Assembly (NCBI GenBank): GCA_964016885.1
Contig: OZ024740.1
Span: 177,816,001-177,880,000, forward strand
DNA length: 64,000 nucleotides
Source: Eledone cirrhosa
Lineage: Eukaryota
Reading direction: 5' to 3'
Below the pieces are notes generated by a model. The model saw only the letters and a list, made by a program, of their open reading frames with translations. It searched no databases and was not told the origin of the DNA. The position numbers were made by a program, and so were the translations under genes. Below are positions 15,163 through 45,652 of the stretch, one piece after another. Numbering within the stretch: the stretch's first letter is position 1; each line of letters opens with the position of its first letter.

Positions 15163-17989
15163 AGAATTGAGATCACCCTCAAACAAGATTTGAGAGCTGT
15201 TAGCGAAAAACGCCGATACCTGAAGAAGGTAGATGAGAGAAAAGTGCTTAATAAAAGATTCAGACGAAACCAAACATCAATCTATAGAGATATGAAGAAC
15301 AAAGTAATAAGTGTCACTGAGGCCCCATCCCAGAAAGACATAGATTCCTTTTGGAGCAAAATATGGGATGAAAAGAAGAATTTCAACCAAGATGCAGTGT
15401 GACTAAGAGAAATCCGAAAGAACTATTGCTCCTACACTACGACAAAAACATACGAAATAAGTGAGAGTACCCTTGAGACTGTGATAGGAAAACTCCAAGA
15501 TAAGAAAACACCAGGAAGAGACATGATTGTCGGCTACTGGTACAAAAAACTGATATTCTATCGGAGGTATCTTACTGACCTCTACCAACAAGTTCTTAAG
15601 GGAGATACACTTATACCAGAATGGTTGACATTAGCACAAACATTACAGATCCCTAAGAACAAAGACACCCACTTGGCAAAAAACTACCGATCCATTGCAT
15701 GCCAGAACCTGATGTATAAGATGTATACAGCCTGCCTGAACCTATTCCTCCAAGATCACTGTGAAAATAATAACATCATCACAGATGAACAAGCAGCTAG
15801 AAAGAAAGGGGTTTGGGGATGTGCTGAACAACTCCTAATAAACAAAACTGCGATGTCGGAGGTGCGACAACTTAGGAGGAATATGGCTACAGTCTGGCTG
15901 GACTACAGGAAAGCTTTCGATTCTGTTCCCCACTCTTGAATGATGCAGGCCCTCTAACTTGCTAAAGTCCCAGACATTATTGTCAGAGCGATAGAGAGGC
16001 TATCTTCTTCTTGGGCTACTATCCTAAGGTTAAAGACAGAGAGGGAGGACTCTATTTTCACTGATAAAATAAATTATCGCATGGGTATATTTCAGGGAGA
16101 CAGTCTCTCTGTGATATTATTCATCTTGTCATTAAACCCCTTGTCCTTTCTGCTCAAGAAATGTGAGGGATACATCATTGGCTCACAGGAAGACAGAAAT
16201 ACGAACCTAACCAATAATTTCTTTGTGGACGATCTGAAACTCTATGACAAGGACATGGATGGGATGAAGAAAAATCTTGACCTGGTTACAACGTTCTCAA
16301 ATGATATAGGAATGGAGTTTGGCCAAGATAAATGCTCATACATGACTGTAAAGCGGGGAAAAACAACAACCCAATCTAGCAACATTGTCATCAATGGCCT
16401 AACTGTTTCACCGATATCTGACGAGGACTGCTACAGATACCTGGGGATAGATGAGAACATATCCTATAATGGTATCTGTAATAAGGAACGCGTAACCAGG
16501 GAATACTACACCCGAATAAGAAAGATTTGGTCATCGGAACTCTCTGCGCAAAACAAAACAATGGCTCACAATGTGTTTGCTGTGCCTGTCCTAACACCAA
16601 CGTTTGGAATACTCAATTGGACGATAGACGAAATCCGAGCAGTTGATGTTGGAACTCTAAAAATACTAAACAACACCGGAAACTTCCACATCAACAGTGA
16701 TATAGACCGCCTTTACTTGAAACGTAAGCAGGGAGGCAGAGGCCTAACATCAGTCCAGGCAGCATTTGAATGTCGCATCATATCCCTCCGACAACATCTA
16801 CGAACCTCGAAGCGTAGGAGCCTGTCGCTCGAGCAAGTCTATCTGCATGAAACAGATAAGATCATGATAGTAGGGAAGGAACTCCTCGAGAGATGTTCCC
16901 TGTATGATAATCAAAAACTCACACCCAGGGAAGTCGCTCAGCAGTATCGCAGTGAATCCATGGATGAAAAACTGCATGCTTATCAGCAAAAAATCATGCA
17001 TGGATATGTTGCCAGGAAGTTCCAGAGTGAGAGTAATATAGATAAGGGAAGTAATCTATCTTTGACCAACAACCGCTATATTGGCTCCCACTTTGAAGGA
17101 TACGCTTTTGCAATCCAAGAACAGGAGATTAAAACGAAATACCTGATTCACAAGAGATAGGGATGCAGGCAAAACACCTAAATGTGATAACAAGTGCAGA
17201 CTCTGCAGAACTAACATCGAGGATATCACCCATGTCATCAGCAGCTGTCCAAAGATGTCATCGCGGTATTATCTACCTATGAGGCATGATGTAGTGGCCA
17301 AAACACTGTAAAATGCAGTTCGTAAAAAAGATAGCCCCGATAATAAACATTAAAAGCTACAACTATCTGGAAGACATCCACGTACATAATATGAAAGAGT
17401 ACTGGTGGAATGTTCCAGTAATTATGATATGGGACAGGGAGAAGAAAGCATGCACAGTAGTGGAAATTAGCTGCCCAGCAGATGCCAATATAATATCAAA
17501 GATTAGTGAAAAGGAGAATATTTATGCAGAACTGATGAGAAATCTGCAGATACTCCACCCTGATTACACCTTCAGATTTATGCCTGTGATTATTGGGGCA
17601 CTGGGGTATGTTAGTAACTGCCTCAATACAAATCTTGAAAAGCTAGGCTTCACAGGAACAGAAAGAACACAACTAGTTAGGAAATTACAAATACAATCCA
17701 TTAATGGAACAATAAAAATATGCAAAGAATTCCAAAATTCTGCATCTAATAACTATATATACACATGTACAGATACAAATCATATGCAAACGCACACATA
17801 TAACTCAAAACATCCACATCCACACATACATTAACATCCATACCTGCACACACATAAATGCATGTAGACATGCATACATATCTATTTAGTTGATGTTGTT
17901 TAAATTCAAATGTGAGAGTGTTGTGTCTATGTTAGAAACCGACTCTCTCTCTGTTGGTAAAAATTTATAAAATTATAAAACCAGAAGAA
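15163..17989 (+). mobile_element. R4/Dong-clade non-LTR retrotransposon (RT + zinc knuckle + restriction-like endonuclease), 5'-truncated and disrupted
   Basis: WLDYRKAFDSVPH, GIFQGDSLS, FFVDDLKLY, YRYLG, CRLC..EDITHVISSC..RHD, IWDREKK..VEISCPAD; several in-frame stops; flanked by (ACAT)n. Confidence 0.9.
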
Positions 17990-28889: not shown

Positions 28890-30370
28890 ATTGTAGTATA
28901 ATAAAAACAAACTAAAATTTGTTCAATTTGATATTGCCAGCTACTATTCCTCCATTTCGCCTTCACTTCTCAATAATGCTCTATCTTTCGCACTTAAATA
29001 TTCTGACATCACCACAGATGAACTTCACATCATTCTCACCGCACGTAAAACCATCCTAGAGTTCAACAACGAATATTGGACCAGAGCCGATACCTCTAAC
29101 AACTTCGACATCACAATGGGAGCATCCGATTCATCCCAATTGACTGATTTAATTGGTATCTTTATTTTGAACTCTTTGAGTCGGAAAATTCCTCAACTTC
29201 GCGGTGGAATTTATCGTGACGATGGACTCTTTACTATCTTAAATTGCAATATAGTTAACCTTAATATTATTAAGAACAATATACGTAATCTCTTTAACCA
29301 ACATAACCTAAAAATTGAATTTGATAACAGTATCAAACTAGCTAATTTCTTGGATGTATCTTTTAATCTTGACACTGGCCTATATTACCCTTACCATAAA
29401 AACAATGAGAACCTAAATTATGTTAACTTTAAATCTAACCATCCTACTAATATCAAGAATGCTATAGTTAGTAATATTGGAAAAAGAATATCTAACCTAT
29501 CTTCTAATAAAAACATCTTTGATGCTAACGCCAATTACTATAATAACGCGCTTTCTAAAGCCGGCTATCCTGATAAAATCAAATATAGTAAAGAAACAAA
29601 TTCTAGAAGAACTTACAGTAGAATAATTAATCATGATCATTCCAATAACTTTAACAAAAGACCTAGATACAAAAACATAATCTGGTATAATGCTCCTTTC
29701 TCCATCTCTATTAATAACAATATTCCTAAATTATTCTTTAGTGCCTTAAATTAATGCTTCCCTCCCTCACATATCTATAGTAAAATATTTAACAAACACA
29801 CCATAAAATTTTCTTATTCTACATCCTCCAACATTTCCAACATTATCTCTAAACACAACAATAAAATACTAAATACTAAATCTCTTCCTTCCAACACTGA
29901 ATTTCATAATAATAGTACTCCCGACGTCATTGTAAACCCTAGGCTAATTTCTACAAACCCAAATACAACGTCAAACACAACTTCGCTAAATGTTCATAAT
30001 CCCACTCTAAATCAAGAAACTATTATTCCTATCGCAAATAACTTCTCCAATCCAATTCCTTCTATAGATAACACTAGGTCACTCATTAATAATCTCTCTA
30101 ATTGCAATTGCAATTGCCCTATTAAAAATAAATGTCCTCTCAACAACCATTGTCTTGATAAAAACTTAATTTACGAATGTAAAGTTATAACTGACACCAA
30201 TTCCTTCACCTATTTTGGCTCCACTTCCACCTCTTTTAAAGTTCGTCTTTATAACCATCATTCATCTTTTAAATACAAACTTAAAAGAACCAACACGGCT
30301 CTCTCAGAACTCATATGGTCCTTGAAAGACAAAAACATTAAATATAGCATCTTTTGGAAGAAGATTTCTT
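28890..30370 (+). mobile_element. Penelope-like element, Naiad-like, truncated at both ends
   Basis: FDITMGASDSSQ, YRDDGL, FLDV, IIWYNAPFS, CNC..KCPLNNHCL..IY..YFGST..FK.RL.NH..SF, LSELIWSLK; TAA stop at 29752-29754. Confidence 0.8.
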
Positions 30371-31267
30371 CGTACAGTAGTATGTATATATATACATACA
30401 TGCACACATATATATATATGCACGTATCGGTTTACCTAACATTTATTACAATGCTCGGTTTGTTTGTTTGTAAACAAACAAACAGCCCGAATTACGCCGT
30501 ACAGTGTTTAGGCAACCACGTCACCCTTTTGTTCAACACTGACACAGGAACGATGTACCAGTTTCAAGCTTATTAGCTATCGTCAGCATCGTAAACCTTC
30601 CTGCCAGATGGTTGAACGTCTGAAAGTATATACTTTCCTTATGCATATTAACGGCTGAGCAGCCTAATTTGCATATCGAGTGAGTTCAGTCGGCCGGGCA
30701 CACCGAAAACGATAAATGGAATAGAATGAAACGAAATTTCATTTCTCACTCTTAGGACGGCACTTACTGGTGACGTGGTTGCCTAAACACTGTACGGCGT
30801 AATTCGGGCTTTTGTTTGTTTACAAACAAACAAACCGAGCATTGTAATAAATGTTCGGTAAACGGATACGTGCATATATATATATGTGTGCATGTATGTA
30901 TATATATACATACTACTGTACGTCTGTATACATATAGGTATGTACGTATACATACATACTTACATTTAAGTAAGTGCCGTACTAAGAGTGAGAAATGAAA
31001 TTTCGTTTCATTCTATTCCATATATATATATATAACGAAGGAAATGTGGTAAGGAACCAGATGGACCATAACGCACCAAAGTACTCAATACTTAGGGTAG
31101 TAGAGTGGGTAATAGGAACGAGTAGGACCCCGTTCCTATATATATTGAGAAAGGTTCTGGACAACAGGCAGTAGCTAAATGCCAGTTGTAGTCCGATATT
31201 TCCTAAAATAACCGGCCCAAAGCAATATCAAAGTTAATCGTGGTAAACAGACAAGTAATAATAATTG

Positions 31268-34505: not shown

Positions 34506-34873
34506 TTAAGGCTTTGTGGTTAAGGTATTCGTCTCACAACCGTAAGGTGGTATCTTTGAGCAAGACACTTTATTTCATATTGCTTCGGTCAACTCAGCTG
34601 GCAAAAATGAGTTGTACCTGTAAATCGAAGGGCCAGCCTTGTTACGTTCGGTGTCACGCTGAATCTTCCAGAGAACTATGTTAAGGGTACGTCCGTCTGT
34701 CTGTGAATGGTCAGCCACTTGCACTTTAATTTTACGAGCAGGCTGTTCCGTTGATCGGATCAATTGCAACACTCATCGTCGCAACCCATGGAGTGGTAGT
34801 AAAATATACATACATATATATATATATATATATACATTTTTTTTCTTCCTAATAATCGTCTTTTTCTCCCTGT

Positions 34874-34903
<30 letters not shown>

Positions 34904-34909
<6 letters not shown>

Positions 34910-37900
34910 ATAAATGCTCTGAAATAGCGATATATATGTGAATATAGACATAGAATATTCGAAAATATTCTGTATGTTTATAATAAACATTTTGAAGACC
35001 TAATCGCTATAGAATAGAATACGTCACGTATTACAATTAGATTCTCGATAAAAGCAAGGGAAGTAATCTACGCGTTTCATTCTCGTAAGAAATCATCAGG
35101 ACTACATATCCAGTGCTTTCATCGAGAATGACACAGCTAGAGACTTATAGAATACTTAGCTGCGTACAGGAACTGGTTTGAAAGAGCGGTTGCCGGTCCG
35201 GCAGAAATTAGAAATTGGAATAAATGCTCTGAAATAGCGATATATATGTGAATATAGACATAGAATATTCGAAAATATTCTGTATGTTTATAATAAACAT
35301 TTTGAAGACCTAATCGCTATAGAATAGAATACGTCACGTATTACAATTAGATTCTCGATAAAAGCAAGGGAAGTAATCTACGCGTTTCATTCTCGTAAGA
35401 AATCATCAGGACTACATATCCAGTGCTTTCATCGAGAATGACACAGCTAGAGACTTATAGAATACTTAGCTGCGTACAGGAACTGGTTTGAAAGAGCGGT
35501 TGCCGGTCCGGCAGAAATTAGAAATTGGAATAAATGCTCTGAAATAGCGATATATATGTGAATATAGACATAGAATATTCGAAAATATTCTGTATGTTTA
35601 TAATAAACATTTTGAAGACCTAATCGCTATAGAATAGAATACGTCACGTATTACAATTAGATTCTCGATAAAAGCAAGGGAAGTAATCTACGCGTTTCAT
35701 TCTCGTAAGAAATCATCAGGACTACATATCCAGTGCTTTCATCGAGAATGACACAGCTAGAGACTTATAGAATACTTAGCTGCGTACAGGAACTGGTTTG
35801 AAAGAGCGGTTGCCGGTCCGGCAGAAATTAGAAATTGGAATAAATGCTCTGAAATAGCGATATATATGTGAATATAGACATAGAATATTCGAAAATATTC
35901 TGTATGTTTATAATAAACATTTTGAAGACCTAATCGCTATAGAATAGAATACGTCACGTATTACAATTAGATTCTCGATAAAAGCAAGGGAAGTAATCTA
36001 CGCGTTTCATTCTCGTAAGAAATCATCAGGACTACATATCCAGTGCTTTCATCGAGAATGACACAGCTAGAGACTTATAGAATACTTAGCTGCGTACAGG
36101 AACTGGTTTGAAAGAGCGGTTGCCGGTCCGGCAGAAATTAGAAATTGGAATAAATGCTCTGAAATAGCGATATATATGTGAATATAGACATAGAATATTC
36201 GAAAATATTCTGTATGTTTATAATAAACATTTTGAAGACCTAATCGCTATAGAATAGAATACGTCACGTATTACAATTAGATTCTCGATAAAAGCAAGGG
36301 AAGTAATCTACGCGTTTCATTCTCGTAAGAAATCATCAGGACTACATATCCAGTGCTTTCATCGAGAATGACACAGCTAGAGACTTATAGAATACTTAGC
36401 TGCGTACAGGAACTGGTTTGAAAGAGCGGTTGCCGGTCCGGCAGAAATTAGAAATTGGAATAAATGCTCTGAAATAGCGATATATATGTGAATATAGACA
36501 TAGAATATTCGAAAATATTCTGTATGTTTATAATAAACATTTTGAAGACCTAATCGCTATAGAATAGAATACGTCACGTATTACAATTAGATTCTCGATA
36601 AAAGCAAGGGAAGTAATCTACGCGTTTCATTCTCGTAAGAAATCATCAGGACTACATATCCAGTGCTTTCATCGAGAATGACACAGCTAGAGACTTATAG
36701 AATACTTAGCTGCGTACAGGAACTGGTTTGAAAGAGCGGTTGCCGGTCCGGCAGAAATTAGAAATTGGAATAAATGCTCTGAAATAGCGATATATATGTG
36801 AATATAGACATAGAATATTCGAAAATATTCTGTATGTTTATAATAAACATTTTGAAGACCTAATCGCTATAGAATAGAATACGTCACGTATTACAATTAG
36901 ATTCTCGATAAAAGCAAGGGAAGTAATCTACGCGTTTCATTCTCGTAAGAAATCATCAGGACTACATATCCAGTGCTTTCATCGAGAATGACACAGCTAG
37001 AGACTTATAGAATACTTAGCTGCGTACAGGAACTGGTTTGAAAGAGCGGTTGCCGGTCCGGCAGAAATTAGAAATTGGAATAAATGCTCTGAAATAGCGA
37101 TATATATGTGAATATAGACATAGAATATTCGAAAATATTCTGTATGTTTATAATAAACATTTTGAAGACCTAATCGCTATAGAATAGAATACGTCACGTA
37201 TTACAATTAGATTCTCGATAAAAGCAAGGGAAGTAATCTACGCGTTTCATTCTCGTAAGAAATCATCAGGACTACATATCCAGTGCTTTCATCGAGAATG
37301 ACACAGCTAGAGACTTATAGAATACTTAGCTGCGTACAGGAACTGGTTTGAAAGAGCGGTTGCCGGTCCGGCAGAAATTAGAAATTGGAATAAATGCTCT
37401 GAAATAGCGATATATATGTGAATATAGACATAGAATATTCGAAAATATTCTGTATGTTTATAATAAACATTTTGAAGACCTAATCGCTATAGAATAGAAT
37501 ACGTCACGTATTACAATTAGATTCTCGATAAAAGCAAGGGAAGTAATCTACGCGTTTCATTCTCGTAAGAAATCATCAGGACTACATATCCAGTGCTTTC
37601 ATCGAGAATGACACAGCTAGAGACTTATAGAATACTTAGCTGCGTACAGGAACTGGTTTGAAAGAGCGGTTGCCGGTCCGGCAGAAATTAGAAATTGGAA
37701 TAAATGCTCTGAAATAGCGATATATATGTGAATATAGACATAGAATATTCGAAAATATTCTGTATGTTTATAATAAACATTTTGAAGACCTAATCGCTAT
37801 AGAATAGAATACGTCACGTATTACAATTAGATTCTCGATAAAAGCAAGGGAAGTAATCTACGCGTTTCATTCTCGTAAGAAATCATCAGGACTACATATC

Positions 37901-37944
37901 CAGTGCTTTCATCGAGAATGACACAGCTAGAGACTTATAGAATA
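34904..37944 (-). repeat. 310-bp tandem array, left arm (~9.8 units; ribozyme on minus strand)
   Basis: Exact 310-bp periodicity (ttggaa ends at 34910, 35220, ...); no differences between units seen by eye. Confidence 0.97.
35063..35105 (-). ncRNA. type I hammerhead ribozyme (first of 10 copies at 310-bp spacing, last at 37853-37895)
   Basis: Reverse complement reads GTAGTC-CTGATGA-tttct-TACG-agaat-GAAAC-GC-GTA-GATTAC. Confidence 0.85.
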
Positions 37945-40761
37945 TTTTCGAATATTCTATGTCTATATTCACATATATATCGCTATTTCAGAGCATTTAT
38001 TCCAATTTCTAATTTCTGCCGGACCGGCAACCGCTCTTTCAAACCAGTTCCTGTACGCAGCTAAGTATTCTATAAGTCTCTAGCTGTGTCATTCTCGATG
38101 AAAGCACTGGATATGTAGTCCTGATGATTTCTTACGAGAATGAAACGCGTAGATTACTTCCCTTGCTTTTATCGAGAATCTAATTGTAATACGTGACGTA
38201 TTCTATTCTATAGCGATTAGGTCTTCAAAATGTTTATTATAAACATACAGAATATTTTCGAATATTCTATGTCTATATTCACATATATATCGCTATTTCA
38301 GAGCATTTATTCCAATTTCTAATTTCTGCCGGACCGGCAACCGCTCTTTCAAACCAGTTCCTGTACGCAGCTAAGTATTCTATAAGTCTCTAGCTGTGTC
38401 ATTCTCGATGAAAGCACTGGATATGTAGTCCTGATGATTTCTTACGAGAATGAAACGCGTAGATTACTTCCCTTGCTTTTATCGAGAATCTAATTGTAAT
38501 ACGTGACGTATTCTATTCTATAGCGATTAGGTCTTCAAAATGTTTATTATAAACATACAGAATATTTTCGAATATTCTATGTCTATATTCACATATATAT
38601 CGCTATTTCAGAGCATTTATTCCAATTTCTAATTTCTGCCGGACCGGCAACCGCTCTTTCAAACCAGTTCCTGTACGCAGCTAAGTATTCTATAAGTTTC
38701 TAGCTGTGTCATTCTCGATGAAAGCACTGGATATGTAGTCCTGATGATTTCTTACGAGAATGAAACGCGTAGATTACTTCCCTTGCTTTTATCGAGAATC
38801 TAATTGTAATACGTGACGTATTCTATTCTATAGCGATTAGGTCTTCAAAATGTTTATTATAAACATACAGAATATTTTCGAATATTCTATGTCTATATTC
38901 ACATATATATCGCTATTTCAGAGCATTTATTCCAATTTCTAATTTCTGCCGGACCGGCAACCGCTCTTTCAAACCAGTTCCTGTACGCAGCTAAGTATTC
39001 TATAAGTCTCTAGCTGTGTCATTCTCGATGAAAGCACTGGATATGTAGTCCTGATGATTTCTTACGAGAATGAAACGCGTAGATTACTTCCCTTGCTTTT
39101 ATCGAGAATCTAATTGTAATACGTGACGTATTCTATTCTATAGCGATTAGGTCTTCAAAATGTTTATTATAAACATACAGAATATTTTCGAATATTCTAT
39201 GTCTATATTCACATATATATCGCTATTTCAGAGCATTTATTCCAATTTCTAATTTCTGCCGGACCGGCAACCGCTCTTTCAAACCAGTTCCTGTACGCAG
39301 CTAAGTATTCTATAAGTCTCTAGCTGTGTCATTCTCGATGAAAGCACTGGATATGTAGTCCTGATGATTTCTTACGAGAATGAAACGCGTAGATTACTTC
39401 CCTTGCTTTTATCGAGAATCTAATTGTAATACGTGACGTATTCTATTCTATAGCGATTAGGTCTTCAAAATGTTTATTATAAACATACAGAATATTTTCG
39501 AATATTCTATGTCTATATTCACATATATATCGCTATTTCAGAGCATTTATTCCAATTTCTAATTTCTGCCGGACCGGCAACCGCTCTTTCAAACCAGTTC
39601 CTGTACGCAGCTAAGTATTCTATAAGTCTCTAGCTGTGTCATTCTCGATGAAAGCACTGGATATGTAGTCCTGATGATTTCTTACGAGAATGAAACGCGT
39701 AGATTACTTCCCTTGCTTTTATCGAGAATCTAATTGTAATACGTGACGTATTCTATTCTATAGCGATTAGGTCTTCAAAATGTTTATTATAAACATACAG
39801 AATATTTTCGAATATTCTATGTCTATATTCACATATATATCGCTATTTCAGAGCATTTATTCCAATTTCTAATTTCTGCCGGACCGGCAACCGCTCTTTC
39901 AAACCAGTTCCTGTACGCAGCTAAGTATTCTATAAGTCTCTAGCTGTGTCATTCTCGATGAAAGCACTGGATATGTAGTCCTGATGATTTCTTACGAGAA
40001 TGAAACGCGTAGATTACTTCCCTTGCTTTTATCGAGAATCTAATTGTAATACGTGACGTATTCTATTCTATAGCGATTAGGTCTTCAAAATGTTTATTAT
40101 AAACATACAGAATATTTTCGAATATTCTATGTCTATATTCACATATATATCGCTATTTCAGAGCATTTATTCCAATTTCTAATTTCTGCCGGACCGGCAA
40201 CCGCTCTTTCAAACCAGTTCCTGTACGCAGCTAAGTATTCTATAAGTCTCTAGCTGTGTCATTCTCGATGAAAGCACTGGATATGTAGTCCTGATGATTT
40301 CTTACGAGAATGAAACGCGTAGATTACTTCCCTTGCTTTTATCGAGAATCTAATTGTAATACGTGACGTATTCTATTCTATAGCGATTAGGTCTTCAAAA
40401 TGTTTATTATAAACATACAGAATATTTTCGAATATTCTATGTCTATATTCACATATATATCGCTATTTCAGAGCATTTATTCCAATTTCTAATTTCTGCC
40501 GGACCGGCAACCGCTCTTTCAAACCAGTTCCTGTACGCAGCTAAGTATTCTATAAGTCTCTAGCTGTGTCATTCTCGATGAAAGCACTGGATATGTAGTC
40601 CTGATGATTTCTTACGAGAATGAAACGCGTAGATTACTTCCCTTGCTTTTATCGAGAATCTAATTGTAATACGTGACGTATTCTATTCTATAGCGATTAG
40701 GTCTTCAAAATGTTTATTATAAACATACAGAATATTTTCGAATATTCTATGTCTATATTCA
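37939..40761 (+). repeat. 310-bp tandem array, right arm (~9.1 units, inverted relative to left arm)
   Basis: Reverse complement of the left-arm unit; one visible variant (C>T at 38698). Confidence 0.97.
38115..38157 (+). ncRNA. type I hammerhead ribozyme (first of 9 copies, last at 40595-40637)
   Basis: Stem I GTAGTC/GATTAC, core CTGATGA 38121-38127, stem II TTCT/AGAA with TACG loop, GAAA 38142-38145, palindromic stem III ACGCGT, GUA cleavage after 38151; stem I extends 38091-38179. Confidence 0.85.
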
Positions 40762-40787
40762 TATATATATATATATATATATATATG

Positions 40788-42405
<1,618 letters not shown>

Positions 42406-43663: not shown

Positions 43664-45652
43664 GCTGGAAGAGGGGAAGGAAAGCTATAAGTAATTAACA
43701 CGTGTGCGTGTGCGTGTGCGTGCGCGCGTGTGTGTGTGTGTGCGTGTGTGTGTGTGTGCGTGCGCGTGTGTGTGTGTGCGTGTGTGTGTGTGTGTGTGTT
43801 CGCGTAGGGTTCCATTATGAGTTAAATCTATTAACATGTGTGTGTGAGTTTGCGTGCGTTTCTGCGTTTGCGTGCTTCAGTGTGTGTGTGTACTTGCGTG
43901 TGGCGTTTCATTTACGCCATTTTTGTCACTGACAACATATTCACTAACTTACATTCATTCCAACCGCTGCTCTTACTGTTACCCCTCTCCCTATACATAC
44001 ACCGTTCGGAAATCACATGCATCGGTTTTTAATTCCTCTCCTCTGTGGCGCCATGTCAGGACACTGATTCTTATAACCAACATGAGAGTTCAATTACACG
44101 GCGACCAAACGTCCGCAGAATTTGCACAGGACATTTTGAAACTTGGCGACGGCAAAATACCTCTGGACGCTGCAGGAGAGTTGGAAGTGTGGCCATTTTC
44201 GACCTCAGTTAATTCTGCGGGGGAACTGAAAGACAAAGTGTTTCCAGATTTGAGAGACAATTACCAGAACCACGCATGGTTGTGTGAAAGAGCAGTGCTA
44301 GCTCCAAAAAACGTTGCTGTTAACAAAACCAACGACCAACTACTGCACTCCCTTCCTGGTGTTCTTCACACTTACAAATCTGTTGACACGATGCCAGATT
44401 CCAATGAAGAGGTGAACTTTCCGCCGGAGTTCCTCAATTCTTTGGAGTCCCCAAGACTACCGCTTCACATGCTTCTCCTTAAAGTTGGCACCCCTGTAAT
44501 GCTGCTGCGGAATTTGGAACCACCAAGAATGTGCAACGGGACACGGCTGGCTGTAAAAAAATTGATGGCACATGTAATCGAGGCAACAATCCTTTCTGGA
44601 TGCGGAAAAGGTGATGATGTCTTCATTCCGAGAATTCCTCTCATTCCCTCGGGAGCAGAAATTTCGTTCACCTTCCGAAGACTCCAATTTCCACTTCGGG
44701 TCAGTTTTGCTATGTCCATCAACAAGTCCCAGAGCCAGACTCTTTCTGTGGCCGAACTTCTTCTGGAAGAACCGTGTTTCTCCCACGGACAATTGTACGT
44801 TGAGTACTCTAGAGTGGGCAGCAGGGAAAGTCTTTTCGCATTTGAACGCCGAGGAAAAACAAGAAACATCGTTTACAACGAGGTGTTGTAAATGCAACAG
44901 CGAGGAGATAGGTCAGTAATCACCATTTCTTTAGCCAGCCTGATGAGCTTTTAACTAAAACGTATGTTTCCCTCGGTTAAAGGTAATCGCCTTCAGAGAG
45001 GAACCCAGCTTGACAATCGGCGCGGTAATTTAAGGCGGCTGAACAAATCGTGAACGCATACAGAGTCATTCTAATGGCTGCCAATGAACGCAACTGAAGT
45101 ACTTTTTGCGGCCGTTGGAGAACGCAGACCTTTCAAGGGCTGCAAGTGAACGATCAAACGGCCCTTTTATGGCCGAAATTGTTGATGGTGAGCCCTCATT
45201 TTTAGGGTGTCAGTGAACGCACACACAACCCTATTTAAGAGGCCCTACTTAAAATTGTTTGATGGCTACTGCAATGGTAAATTCATATCGACCAGCATCT
45301 GCTAAAACAGTGTTATCAGCGCTACAATGGACAGACAGGTACGTTATCGCTCTTCTTAACAAGCCCTGTTTACCTTTACTTATTTTTCCTAACAACATTT
45401 GCTTCCTTTGGTTAAAGGTGAACACACACACGACCCTTTCTTAGCCCCCCTCCCCTTCTTCATGAAATTGGAAATTTATTTTGCTCACAAAAATTTTTTT
45501 TTTTATGAACTCAGAATTGATTTCATCGTGTGTCCCAATTGAAGAATAAATTGAATTTTGAAGAACACATTTCTATACAATATATTTTACTCTTTTCTTC
45601 TAATATGTAAGGAACAATTTCATTCCCGGGCAACGCCAGGTGCCTATGCTAG
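42860..45652 (+). mobile_element. Helitron, internally deleted
   Basis: 5' end tatataaaacagaggatgtctgtc..aaaactcgaga (exact start hidden in (TA)n); 3' ccgggcaacgccagg followed by CTAG|T at 45649-45652; helicase ORF inside. Confidence 0.85.
44030..44891 (+). pseudogene. Helitron RepHel PIF1-like helicase, C-terminal fragment
   Basis: S.LW..V..L.L.TNMR, WLCERAVLAPKN, LKVGTPVMLLRNL.PP..CNGTRL, FIPRIPL.P, RLQFP.R.SFAMSINKSQ.QTL, FSHGQLYV..SRV, T.NIVY.EVL. Confidence 0.92.

Follow-up and report, generated by a model that had tools for sequence, protein, structure and literature searches.

A clonal, two-armed hammerhead repeat of Eledone cirrhosa, a probable retrozyme moved by a Penelope-like element

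The two arrays and their monomer

The window analyzed here is a stretch of 64,000 nucleotides (nt) of the Eledone cirrhosa genome (GenBank assembly GCA_964016885.1, contig OZ024740.1, positions 177,816,001 to 177,880,000 of the forward strand), and it contains two divergent arrays of one 310-nt unit, the 18 full copies of which are identical except for one base (Table 1). The unit has about 35% GC and no long terminal repeat (LTR), and no open reading frame of 120 aa or more was found in the arrays. Counting of 25-mers in the genome (15,996 with the common allele and 29 with the window allele) gives about 16,025 copies and about 5 Mb of DNA for this family, here family A. As judged from genomic DNA, the repeat is probably a non-autonomous, non-LTR retrozyme with a type I hammerhead ribozyme, mobilized in trans by a Penelope-like element (PLE) of the kind that has an endonuclease.

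The RNA sense of the left arm runs leftward, starting at monomer position 128 and stopping, with the tail, at position 68 (site II), and the outer end of the right arm is at monomer position 33-42 (site I), within (AT)n. The first right-arm copy, on which the numbering is based, ends at 38248; an earlier note on this DNA had placed the end at 38250, which is 2 nt inside the next copy. The decayed element beyond the right arm is 82-93% identical over about 1.4 kb to GIY-YIG loci elsewhere in the genome (e.g., L055, L056, L071), and its end falls in the same (AT)n as the right arm. Both flanks (34834-34878 and 40787-40830) are the 42-45 nt 3' tip of one GIY-YIG PLE family, inverted and adjoining (AT)n. 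As evidence of a duplication made at insertion this was rejected: the shared 33-mer has 224 occurrences in the genome, and a local duplication is indistinguishable from two separate insertions.

Of more than 1,000 loci, 80 were examined, namely the window, the 20 best matches, 4 loci with a rare allele, the first 15 on sequence C1, and 40 chosen by their site II end. Stem III of the hammerhead is a single pair with a palindromic loop, and cleavage, as read from the sequence, is predicted after 38151. The palindrome can form a duplex of -7.5 kcal/mol (computed), and stems III of this kind are described as acting as dimers between adjacent repeats (PMC4209133; PMC7229834). No ribozyme family of Rfam was detected on either strand of the window at the gathering threshold, and 37939-38600 at E up to 5 gave two chance matches only; the hammerhead call rests on the core and on covariation because the Rfam models do not score the motif. 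The 10 invariant core positions show a fixed change in none of 73 loci, variation being confined to N7 and the stem II base. A second ribozyme on the opposite strand was also searched for, and neither a CUGANGA core on the minus strand nor an Rfam match was found. A fixed 1-nt insertion two bases past the predicted cleavage site is present in L105, L113, L173, L179 and L183, and one copy in L035 has a 10-nt deletion spanning this site.

Fold of the monomer RNA and its conservation

All six stems named in the earlier note are present in the sequence at the place given, and five of them have a mean pair probability of 0.89-0.98 in the circular ensemble, the value for the long-range pair atcgctat/atagcgat being 0.57. 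When folded as a circle, the ribozyme strand has a minimum free energy (MFE) of -67.5 kcal/mol against -51.0 ± 4.7 kcal/mol in dinucleotide shuffles (z -3.48, with 0 of 300 as low), and the opposite polarity folded likewise gives -69.9 against -54.2 ± 4.4 (z -3.57). The low energy is thus borne out in both polarities, and folding energy was rejected as a test of polarity because both strands score alike. Five natural monomers from two families, with a self-paired predicted circle, range from z -3.5 to -6.4. The description of the monomer as built almost entirely of hairpins was overstated, since 60% of it is paired in the MFE structure against 56.6 ± 3.1% in shuffles; the six named stems together make up 98 of the 310 nt. 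The stems of the monomer RNA are unusually strong, not unusually numerous.

Stable cUNCGg loops are closed by C-G. The UUCG and UACG loops of the monomer, which the earlier note had pointed to in the ribozyme polarity, are both closed by U-A and neither is conserved. The hammerhead loop II is UACG in 16 of 78 loci (AACA in 34, AACG in 16 and AAUA in 12), and the H1 loop is UUCG in 723 of 727 family A copies and GCCA in 36 of 43 copies of the sister family. Selection for UNCG tetraloops was rejected, as the loops vary between loci and families.

The sister family (family B) was found beside a PLE in L056 and has 2,806 candidates in the genome. It is about 67-75% identical to family A in the aligned parts and consists of 310-315 nt units whose copies are 90-95% alike, mainly in short inverted pairs (L056:2420-2900; L120-L149). 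Its hammerhead has a 3-bp stem III with cleavage predicted after GUU. Folded separately, two natural B monomers resemble family A in layout (z -6.4 and -4.8, against 40 shuffles for each). Compensatory changes in homologues, which the earlier note had named as a check, were found: among 49 pairs defined on family A and compared with B (H2, H5, H7, H6b, stem III and one stem II pair being omitted on account of bulges or shifted registers), 33 are unchanged, 9 are changed on both sides and still paired, 4 are changed on one side and still paired, and 3 are broken. Random placement of the same 25 substitutions is expected to leave 13.3 pairs broken and 1.7 compensated, and none of 20,000 simulations matched the observed counts. 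Helix H6 has 4 compensatory changes in the sister family, and both stem I and stem II of the hammerhead show compensatory changes between the families.

Among the 80 family A loci, 33 distinct locus-fixed variants were found, which were presumably already in the template; 10 are located in stems, though stems are 50% of sites (p 0.02). Pairing is kept by 9 of these 10 on the ribozyme strand and by 1 of 10 on the other strand. Of 36 single-copy stem variants counted in 557 interior copies, 12 keep pairing, which differs from the fixed variants (Fisher p 0.003), although the latter sit on related haplotypes and are not fully independent. The fixed variants comprise 12 A>G against 3 T>C (p 0.006), and in stems 8 A>G against no C>T. 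Reverse transcription of RNA with A-to-I edits may be the source of this A>G excess. A similar tendency is seen among single-copy variants, with 13 A>G and 6 T>C (Fisher p 0.70). Editing by ADAR is not separable from selection for G-U pairs, because the latter predicts a similar bias and the single-copy variants lean alike. The RNA structure of the monomer thus appears to be under selection, as the earlier note had proposed in place of a neutral satellite; this is supported by the covariation and by the polarity of the variants, and not by the tetraloops or the paired fraction.

Table 1. Features of the arrays, the monomer and the flank (positions in the window; monomer features refer to the first right-arm copy).
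Feature	Position	Strand	Remarks
(AT)n microsatellite, outer end of left arm	34878..34905	.	target
Left arm	34904..37944	-	9.8 tandem copies; 9 full copies identical
Arm junction, 5'-to-5'	37939..37944	.	6-nt microhomology/overlap; asymmetric (positions 128 and 1)
Right arm	37939..40761	+	9.1 tandem copies; 9 full; single C>T in copy at 38559
Monomer, first right-arm copy	37939..38248	+	basis of 1-310 numbering
Hairpin H1, 8 bp	37939..37958	+	sister family: one compensatory and one G-U change; loop variable
Site I, monomer 33-42	37971..37980	+	AT-alternating stretch merging with (AT)n target; putative first reverse transcription start
Long-range helix H2, 5' strand	37979..37986, partner 38210-38217	+	pair probability 0.57; predicted too in two sister-family copies
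Tail, 26-35 nt, ending at site II (monomer 68)	37981..38006	+	mostly unpaired loop (unpaired probabilities); putative second reverse transcription start
Helix H3	37990-37994 with 38033-38037	+	encloses site II and H4; not listed in earlier note; invariant in sister family
Hairpin H4	38017-38029	+	one C-G to U-G change in sister family
Hairpin H5, 9-bp outer stem	38055..38089	+	near-private allele 119G at 38057 is a G-U pair
Helix H6, 16 bp, ribozyme arm 38091..38179	38091-38106 with 38164-38179	+	extends hammerhead stem I via internal loops
Type I hammerhead	38115..38157	+	6-bp stem I; core CUGAUGA at 38121-38127; 4-bp stem II on U-U; GAAA
Hairpin H7, 6 bp	38188..38202	+	sister family: register-shifted hairpin at same place
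Hairpin H8, 6 bp	38230..38246	+	pair probability 0.43; sister family: stem invariant, loop changed; not listed in earlier note
(AT)n microsatellite, outer end of right arm	40761..40786	.	target
Flank outside element	40787..42208	-	decayed 5'-truncated 3' part of GIY-YIG PLE

End sites, haplotypes and junctions

Exact junctions between an end of the repeat and (AT)n number 1,137 at site I (control 10) and 1,021 at site II (control 0) genome-wide; the 40 loci picked by such a junction give no test of (AT)n targeting. Two divergent arms are present in 66 of the 80 loci, and of the other 14, three ran past the examined stretch and one hit a gap. This inverted layout with its fixed ends is the main feature of the element and was outside the earlier note. 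Divergent end pairs no more than 20 kb apart in the first 244 Mb of C1 consist, among the matches listed (100 site I ends and 89 of 100 site II ends in range), of one site I and one site II end in 56 of 56 cases. Untruncated arm ends (n=136) fall at 41-42 in 65 cases and at 68 in 61, and these two sites are also where family B stops. Which arm is the longer varies (25 against 32 of 57), and the arm lengths correlate weakly (rho 0.27, p 0.04). With more than 1,000 near-identical, clonal, two-armed insertions, family A is very young, and its arrays appear to arrive as multimers at insertion.

The same haplotype was found in both arms of 43 of 45 loci with at least 1.5 copies in each arm, 19 haplotypes being represented; permutation gave a mean of 4.7 and a maximum of 15. 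In the window, all 18 copies that span the site, from both arms, have the rare allele 119G. It is shared by only 11 further copies genome-wide, 7 of them on another haplotype, and in four loci just one copy has it. The window haplotype was found in no other multi-copy locus of the assembly, and the sole other multi-copy locus with 119G has a different haplotype.

The 66 junctions between arms comprise 41 with overlap, 6 blunt and 19 with short inserts, which often look templated; an overlap of at least 2 nt was seen in 30 of the 47 insert-free junctions, against 19% by chance. The inner (5') ends of the arms are scattered round the monomer. Clustering at the cleavage site was rejected, as 2 of 132 ends lie near it against 3.8 expected, and the polymerase therefore read through this site. 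Sealing of the junctions by stems was likewise rejected as a common event, the H6 stem being used in only 3 of 66.

Three of four sequencing runs compared (X4, X5 and X6, labeled as other organisms and of unknown kind) each contain a self-closing record of 340 nt with 3-4 differences from 37939-38248, all of them common alleles of the family. These records were rejected as evidence of a circle or of expression because a tandem array, trace DNA or close relatives could explain them. A loose-end motif from one sequencing run was searched for in the genome with no match.

A third short hammerhead element (L093:7995-8205, L097:4620-4826, L090:1180-1350 and L132) is about 75% like family A over positions 129-208; its copies likewise lie in (AT)n as inverted pairs, the two ends being separated by about 65 nt. 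Further motifs resembling a hammerhead, from other families, are present in L095 (three in tandem, about 500 nt apart), L135, L148, L065/L099 and L094. Elsewhere in the window are disrupted frames for a reverse transcriptase (PF00078), from another retroelement, at 15403-17160 (+), two open frames in succession (285 and 273 aa), neither matched in Pfam, at 28897-30576 (+), and a fragment of a Pif1-type helicase (PF21530, PF05970), possibly from a Helitron, at 43848-44891 (+).

Mobilization and origin of the insertions

Insertions of PLEs are described as marked by an inverted 5'-truncated copy, a one-sided tail of 30-40 bp, and targeting of (TA)n (PMC8557442, PMC3846280). The present repeat has the inverted 5'-truncated copy at its 5' end in the 66 two-armed loci, a tail on one side only (ends at 33-42 and at about 68, the pairs listed all being mixed), and insertion in (AT)n, a Neptune/Naiad trait, as seen from the flanks and the exact end junctions. 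In PLE reactions in vitro, both DNA strands were reported to be cut and extended, and the tail corresponds to the interval separating two internal sites at which reverse transcription starts (PMC11167929). The genome holds frames of reverse transcriptase with a C-terminal GIY-YIG domain and a CX4CxxC linker, as in Neptune, and the mobilizing PLE is probably of the Neptune type. On these marks, the repeat is very probably a retrozyme mobilized by a PLE. One Neptune-type family (L085, L086, L090, L093) has copies 93-99% alike, frames of up to 938 aa, an inverted and tandem layout, and a tail of about 65-80 nt; no hammerhead was found near its frame.

The closest known systems are the metazoan non-LTR retrozymes, described as non-coding, GC-poor tandem repeats of 150-450 bp with a single type I hammerhead in each unit and a self-paired predicted circle (PMC7229834). 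The one-pair stem III with palindromic tetraloop resembles that of HHR_Amex1 of the axolotl, and the U-U base of stem II that of HHR_Amex2 (PMC7229834). Retrozyme RNAs are reported as circular in coral, mussel and axolotl; circular RNA was demonstrated there, whereas for the present monomer a circle is predicted, and mobilization by PLEs with tandem complementary DNA (cDNA) made from a circle was proposed and not shown there, whereas insertion footprints are visible here (PMC7229834). The words 'inverted', 'microsatellite' and 'cephalopod' do not occur in the main text of that paper. In Xenopus, retrozymes were tied to PLEs by co-occurrence and pLTR homology (bioRxiv 10.64898/2026.07.22.740005); no pLTR homology to a partner was found among 46 loci here. 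In that report, tandem copies are proposed to be amplified locally once inserted, the mechanism being left open, whereas multimers appear here to be present at insertion.

Endonuclease-bearing PLEs of the Neptune/Naiad type are similar in their partial tandems, inverted 5'-truncated copy, tail of 30-40 bp at one end, (TA)n targets and internal start of reverse transcription at two sites (PMC8557442, PMC3846280, PMC11167929). Non-autonomous Chlamys elements with multicopy head-to-tail insertions are described among them (PMC8557442, PMC3846280). The present element differs in being non-coding, in keeping a canonical hammerhead, and in having long multimers in both arms. The in vitro work of PMC11167929 did not resolve a strict pairing of site I with site II in each insertion.

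The proposed mechanism builds on direct observations in the genome (conservation of the structure, layout, end sites, clonality and junctions) and has four steps. Firstly, by analogy with PMC7229834, the arrays would be transcribed, and adjacent hammerheads, pairing through the palindromic stem III, would cut the RNA to 310-nt monomers that are ligated into circles. Secondly, judging by the footprints, a PLE protein would cut both strands of an (AT)n tract. Thirdly, reverse transcription would be primed by each DNA end at an internal site of the RNA, namely site I (33-42), in an AU run of the RNA itself, for one end and site II (about 68) for the other; both cDNAs would pass the hammerhead site and could reach 10 monomer lengths or more, a single circle being the simplest template. 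Finally, the two same-sense cDNAs would be joined at their far ends by microhomology or by a short templated insert, giving a head-to-head palindrome of one haplotype. The selected fold would consist of the ribozyme arm and the conserved domain around both start sites. A single circle with two polymerases is slightly favored because it is the simplest account of the clonality, the read-through and the intact ribozyme. In its fullest form, which is offered tentatively, each insertion would derive from one ribozyme-made RNA circle by rolling-circle reverse transcription from both break ends by a Penelope-type dimer, with starts about 30 nt apart and the polymerases following each other, and the A-to-G excess in stems may be RNA editing written into DNA.

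Several observations weigh against this account. The pair probability of stem II is 0.08 in the ensemble of the window variant, yet the active fold costs just 1.8 kcal/mol. The covariation is between two lineages only and with helix registers set by hand; in an automatic alignment (MAFFT, RNAalifold) the 3' half was misaligned and just 5 of 43 pairs showed double changes, and H6 shifted one base out of register gives 6 compensated and 8 broken pairs. A second rare allele, 22G, is not private, with 29 matches in loci of 18, 10 and 1 copies. Mixed haplotypes occur in L033, L035 and L163, and L100 (G000:C3:202459000-202468900) is a mosaic, with a 23-copy arm in which blocks of two alleles recur, which suggests that the array expanded locally once inserted; there is therefore more than one template, or exchange within the locus at a later time. 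The partner PLE was not found: 46 GIY-YIG loci, drawn from 150 scored of 10,597 candidates, have no homology to the monomer except in nearby retrozyme insertions, and nothing beyond short end motifs is like those of two PLE families. An anole PLE is reported to have used uncleaved RNA in vitro, the hammerhead being dispensable, with no strand difference in start site (PMC11167929).

The last result, the use of unprocessed RNA (PMC11167929), speaks for the main alternative, in which the same PLE machinery acts on the same element but copies long linear RNA (one or two molecules) made by read-through transcription of a homogeneous donor array, and the hammerhead only frees the RNA from a host transcript. 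Clonal arms would be explained in this way without a circle. The single copies of 119G in four loci agree with it, as does the fixation of 22G in two multi-copy loci, possibly donor and daughter, which fits a circle lineage alike. However, the window haplotype has no other multi-copy locus in the assembly, which represents one version of one individual and may lack the donor, and a core intact in 73 of 73 loci should cut multimers. A linear template is considered possible but unlikely.

Formation of the second arm by fold-back or self-priming, with the first cDNA or an antisense RNA being copied, is doubtful. Such copying was proposed for Penelope elements whose inverted junctions contain palindromes (PMC3846280); it would yield one haplotype in both arms, and the three junctions on the H6 stem and the weak correlation of arm lengths are in line with it. 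However, the junctions are asymmetric and scattered over the monomer, either arm may be several times longer than the other, and the outer ends lie at fixed, differing sites.

Hammerhead viroids and viroid-like satellite RNAs are alike in size, branched fold, hammerhead and probable circle. Integration of a viroid-like circle that replicates from RNA to RNA, its hairpins being selected for replication, would agree with the size, branched fold and hammerhead, and the 19 haplotypes among 45 loci indicate a diverse template pool. This origin is nevertheless quite improbable: the haplotypes are few changes apart and derivable from 16,000 genomic copies, and the opposite strand has no hammerhead core and no Rfam family. 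Of the marks of viroids, neither a ribozyme in both polarities nor the absence of a DNA stage was found (about 16,000 genomic copies). Unlike viroids, the element is genome-encoded, has its ribozyme in one polarity, and would spread by reverse transcription. The branched viroid-like circle of the earlier note was kept only in part: the missing opposite-strand hammerhead and the marks of retrotransposition speak against it, while the element fits the genome-encoded retrozymes, with RNAs that are circular in coral, mussel and axolotl.

Neutral satellite DNA amplified by unequal crossing-over, with palindromes as fold-back artefacts of long-read assembly, is scarcely tenable, for although the window copies are nearly identical and the mosaic blocks of L100 resemble local exchange, more than 1,000 insertions are dispersed in the genome and end at two fixed sites, the arms do not mirror each other either where they join or where they end, the older, decayed family B has the same layout and ends, and the idea is refuted by variants that keep pairing on one strand only and by the uniformly mixed end pairs among the matches listed.

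For a retrozyme, a hairpin-rich fold is expected and unsurprising, and as a retrozyme the element is of a known kind, pending proof of circular RNA. No report of a clonal head-to-head layout with strictly paired PLE ends was found for retrozymes, nor any linking retrozymes with ADAR editing or on octopus hammerheads, in a literature search that was thin on subscription papers, repeat databases and supplements; loci of this kind may appear among the supplementary figures of PMC7229834. How animal retrozymes return to DNA, and how the head-to-head repeats of PLEs with a one-sided tail arise, are both stated as open (PMC7229834, PMC8557442, bioRxiv 10.64898/2026.07.22.740005), and the young, clonal, two-armed family makes both questions testable by counting. 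The 310-nt RNA with its two mapped start sites is a substrate for an in vitro PLE assay. If true, the derivation of each insertion from one circle would be genomic evidence for the proposed life cycle of retrozymes, and would explain the head-to-head repeats and the one-sided tail of PLEs generally.

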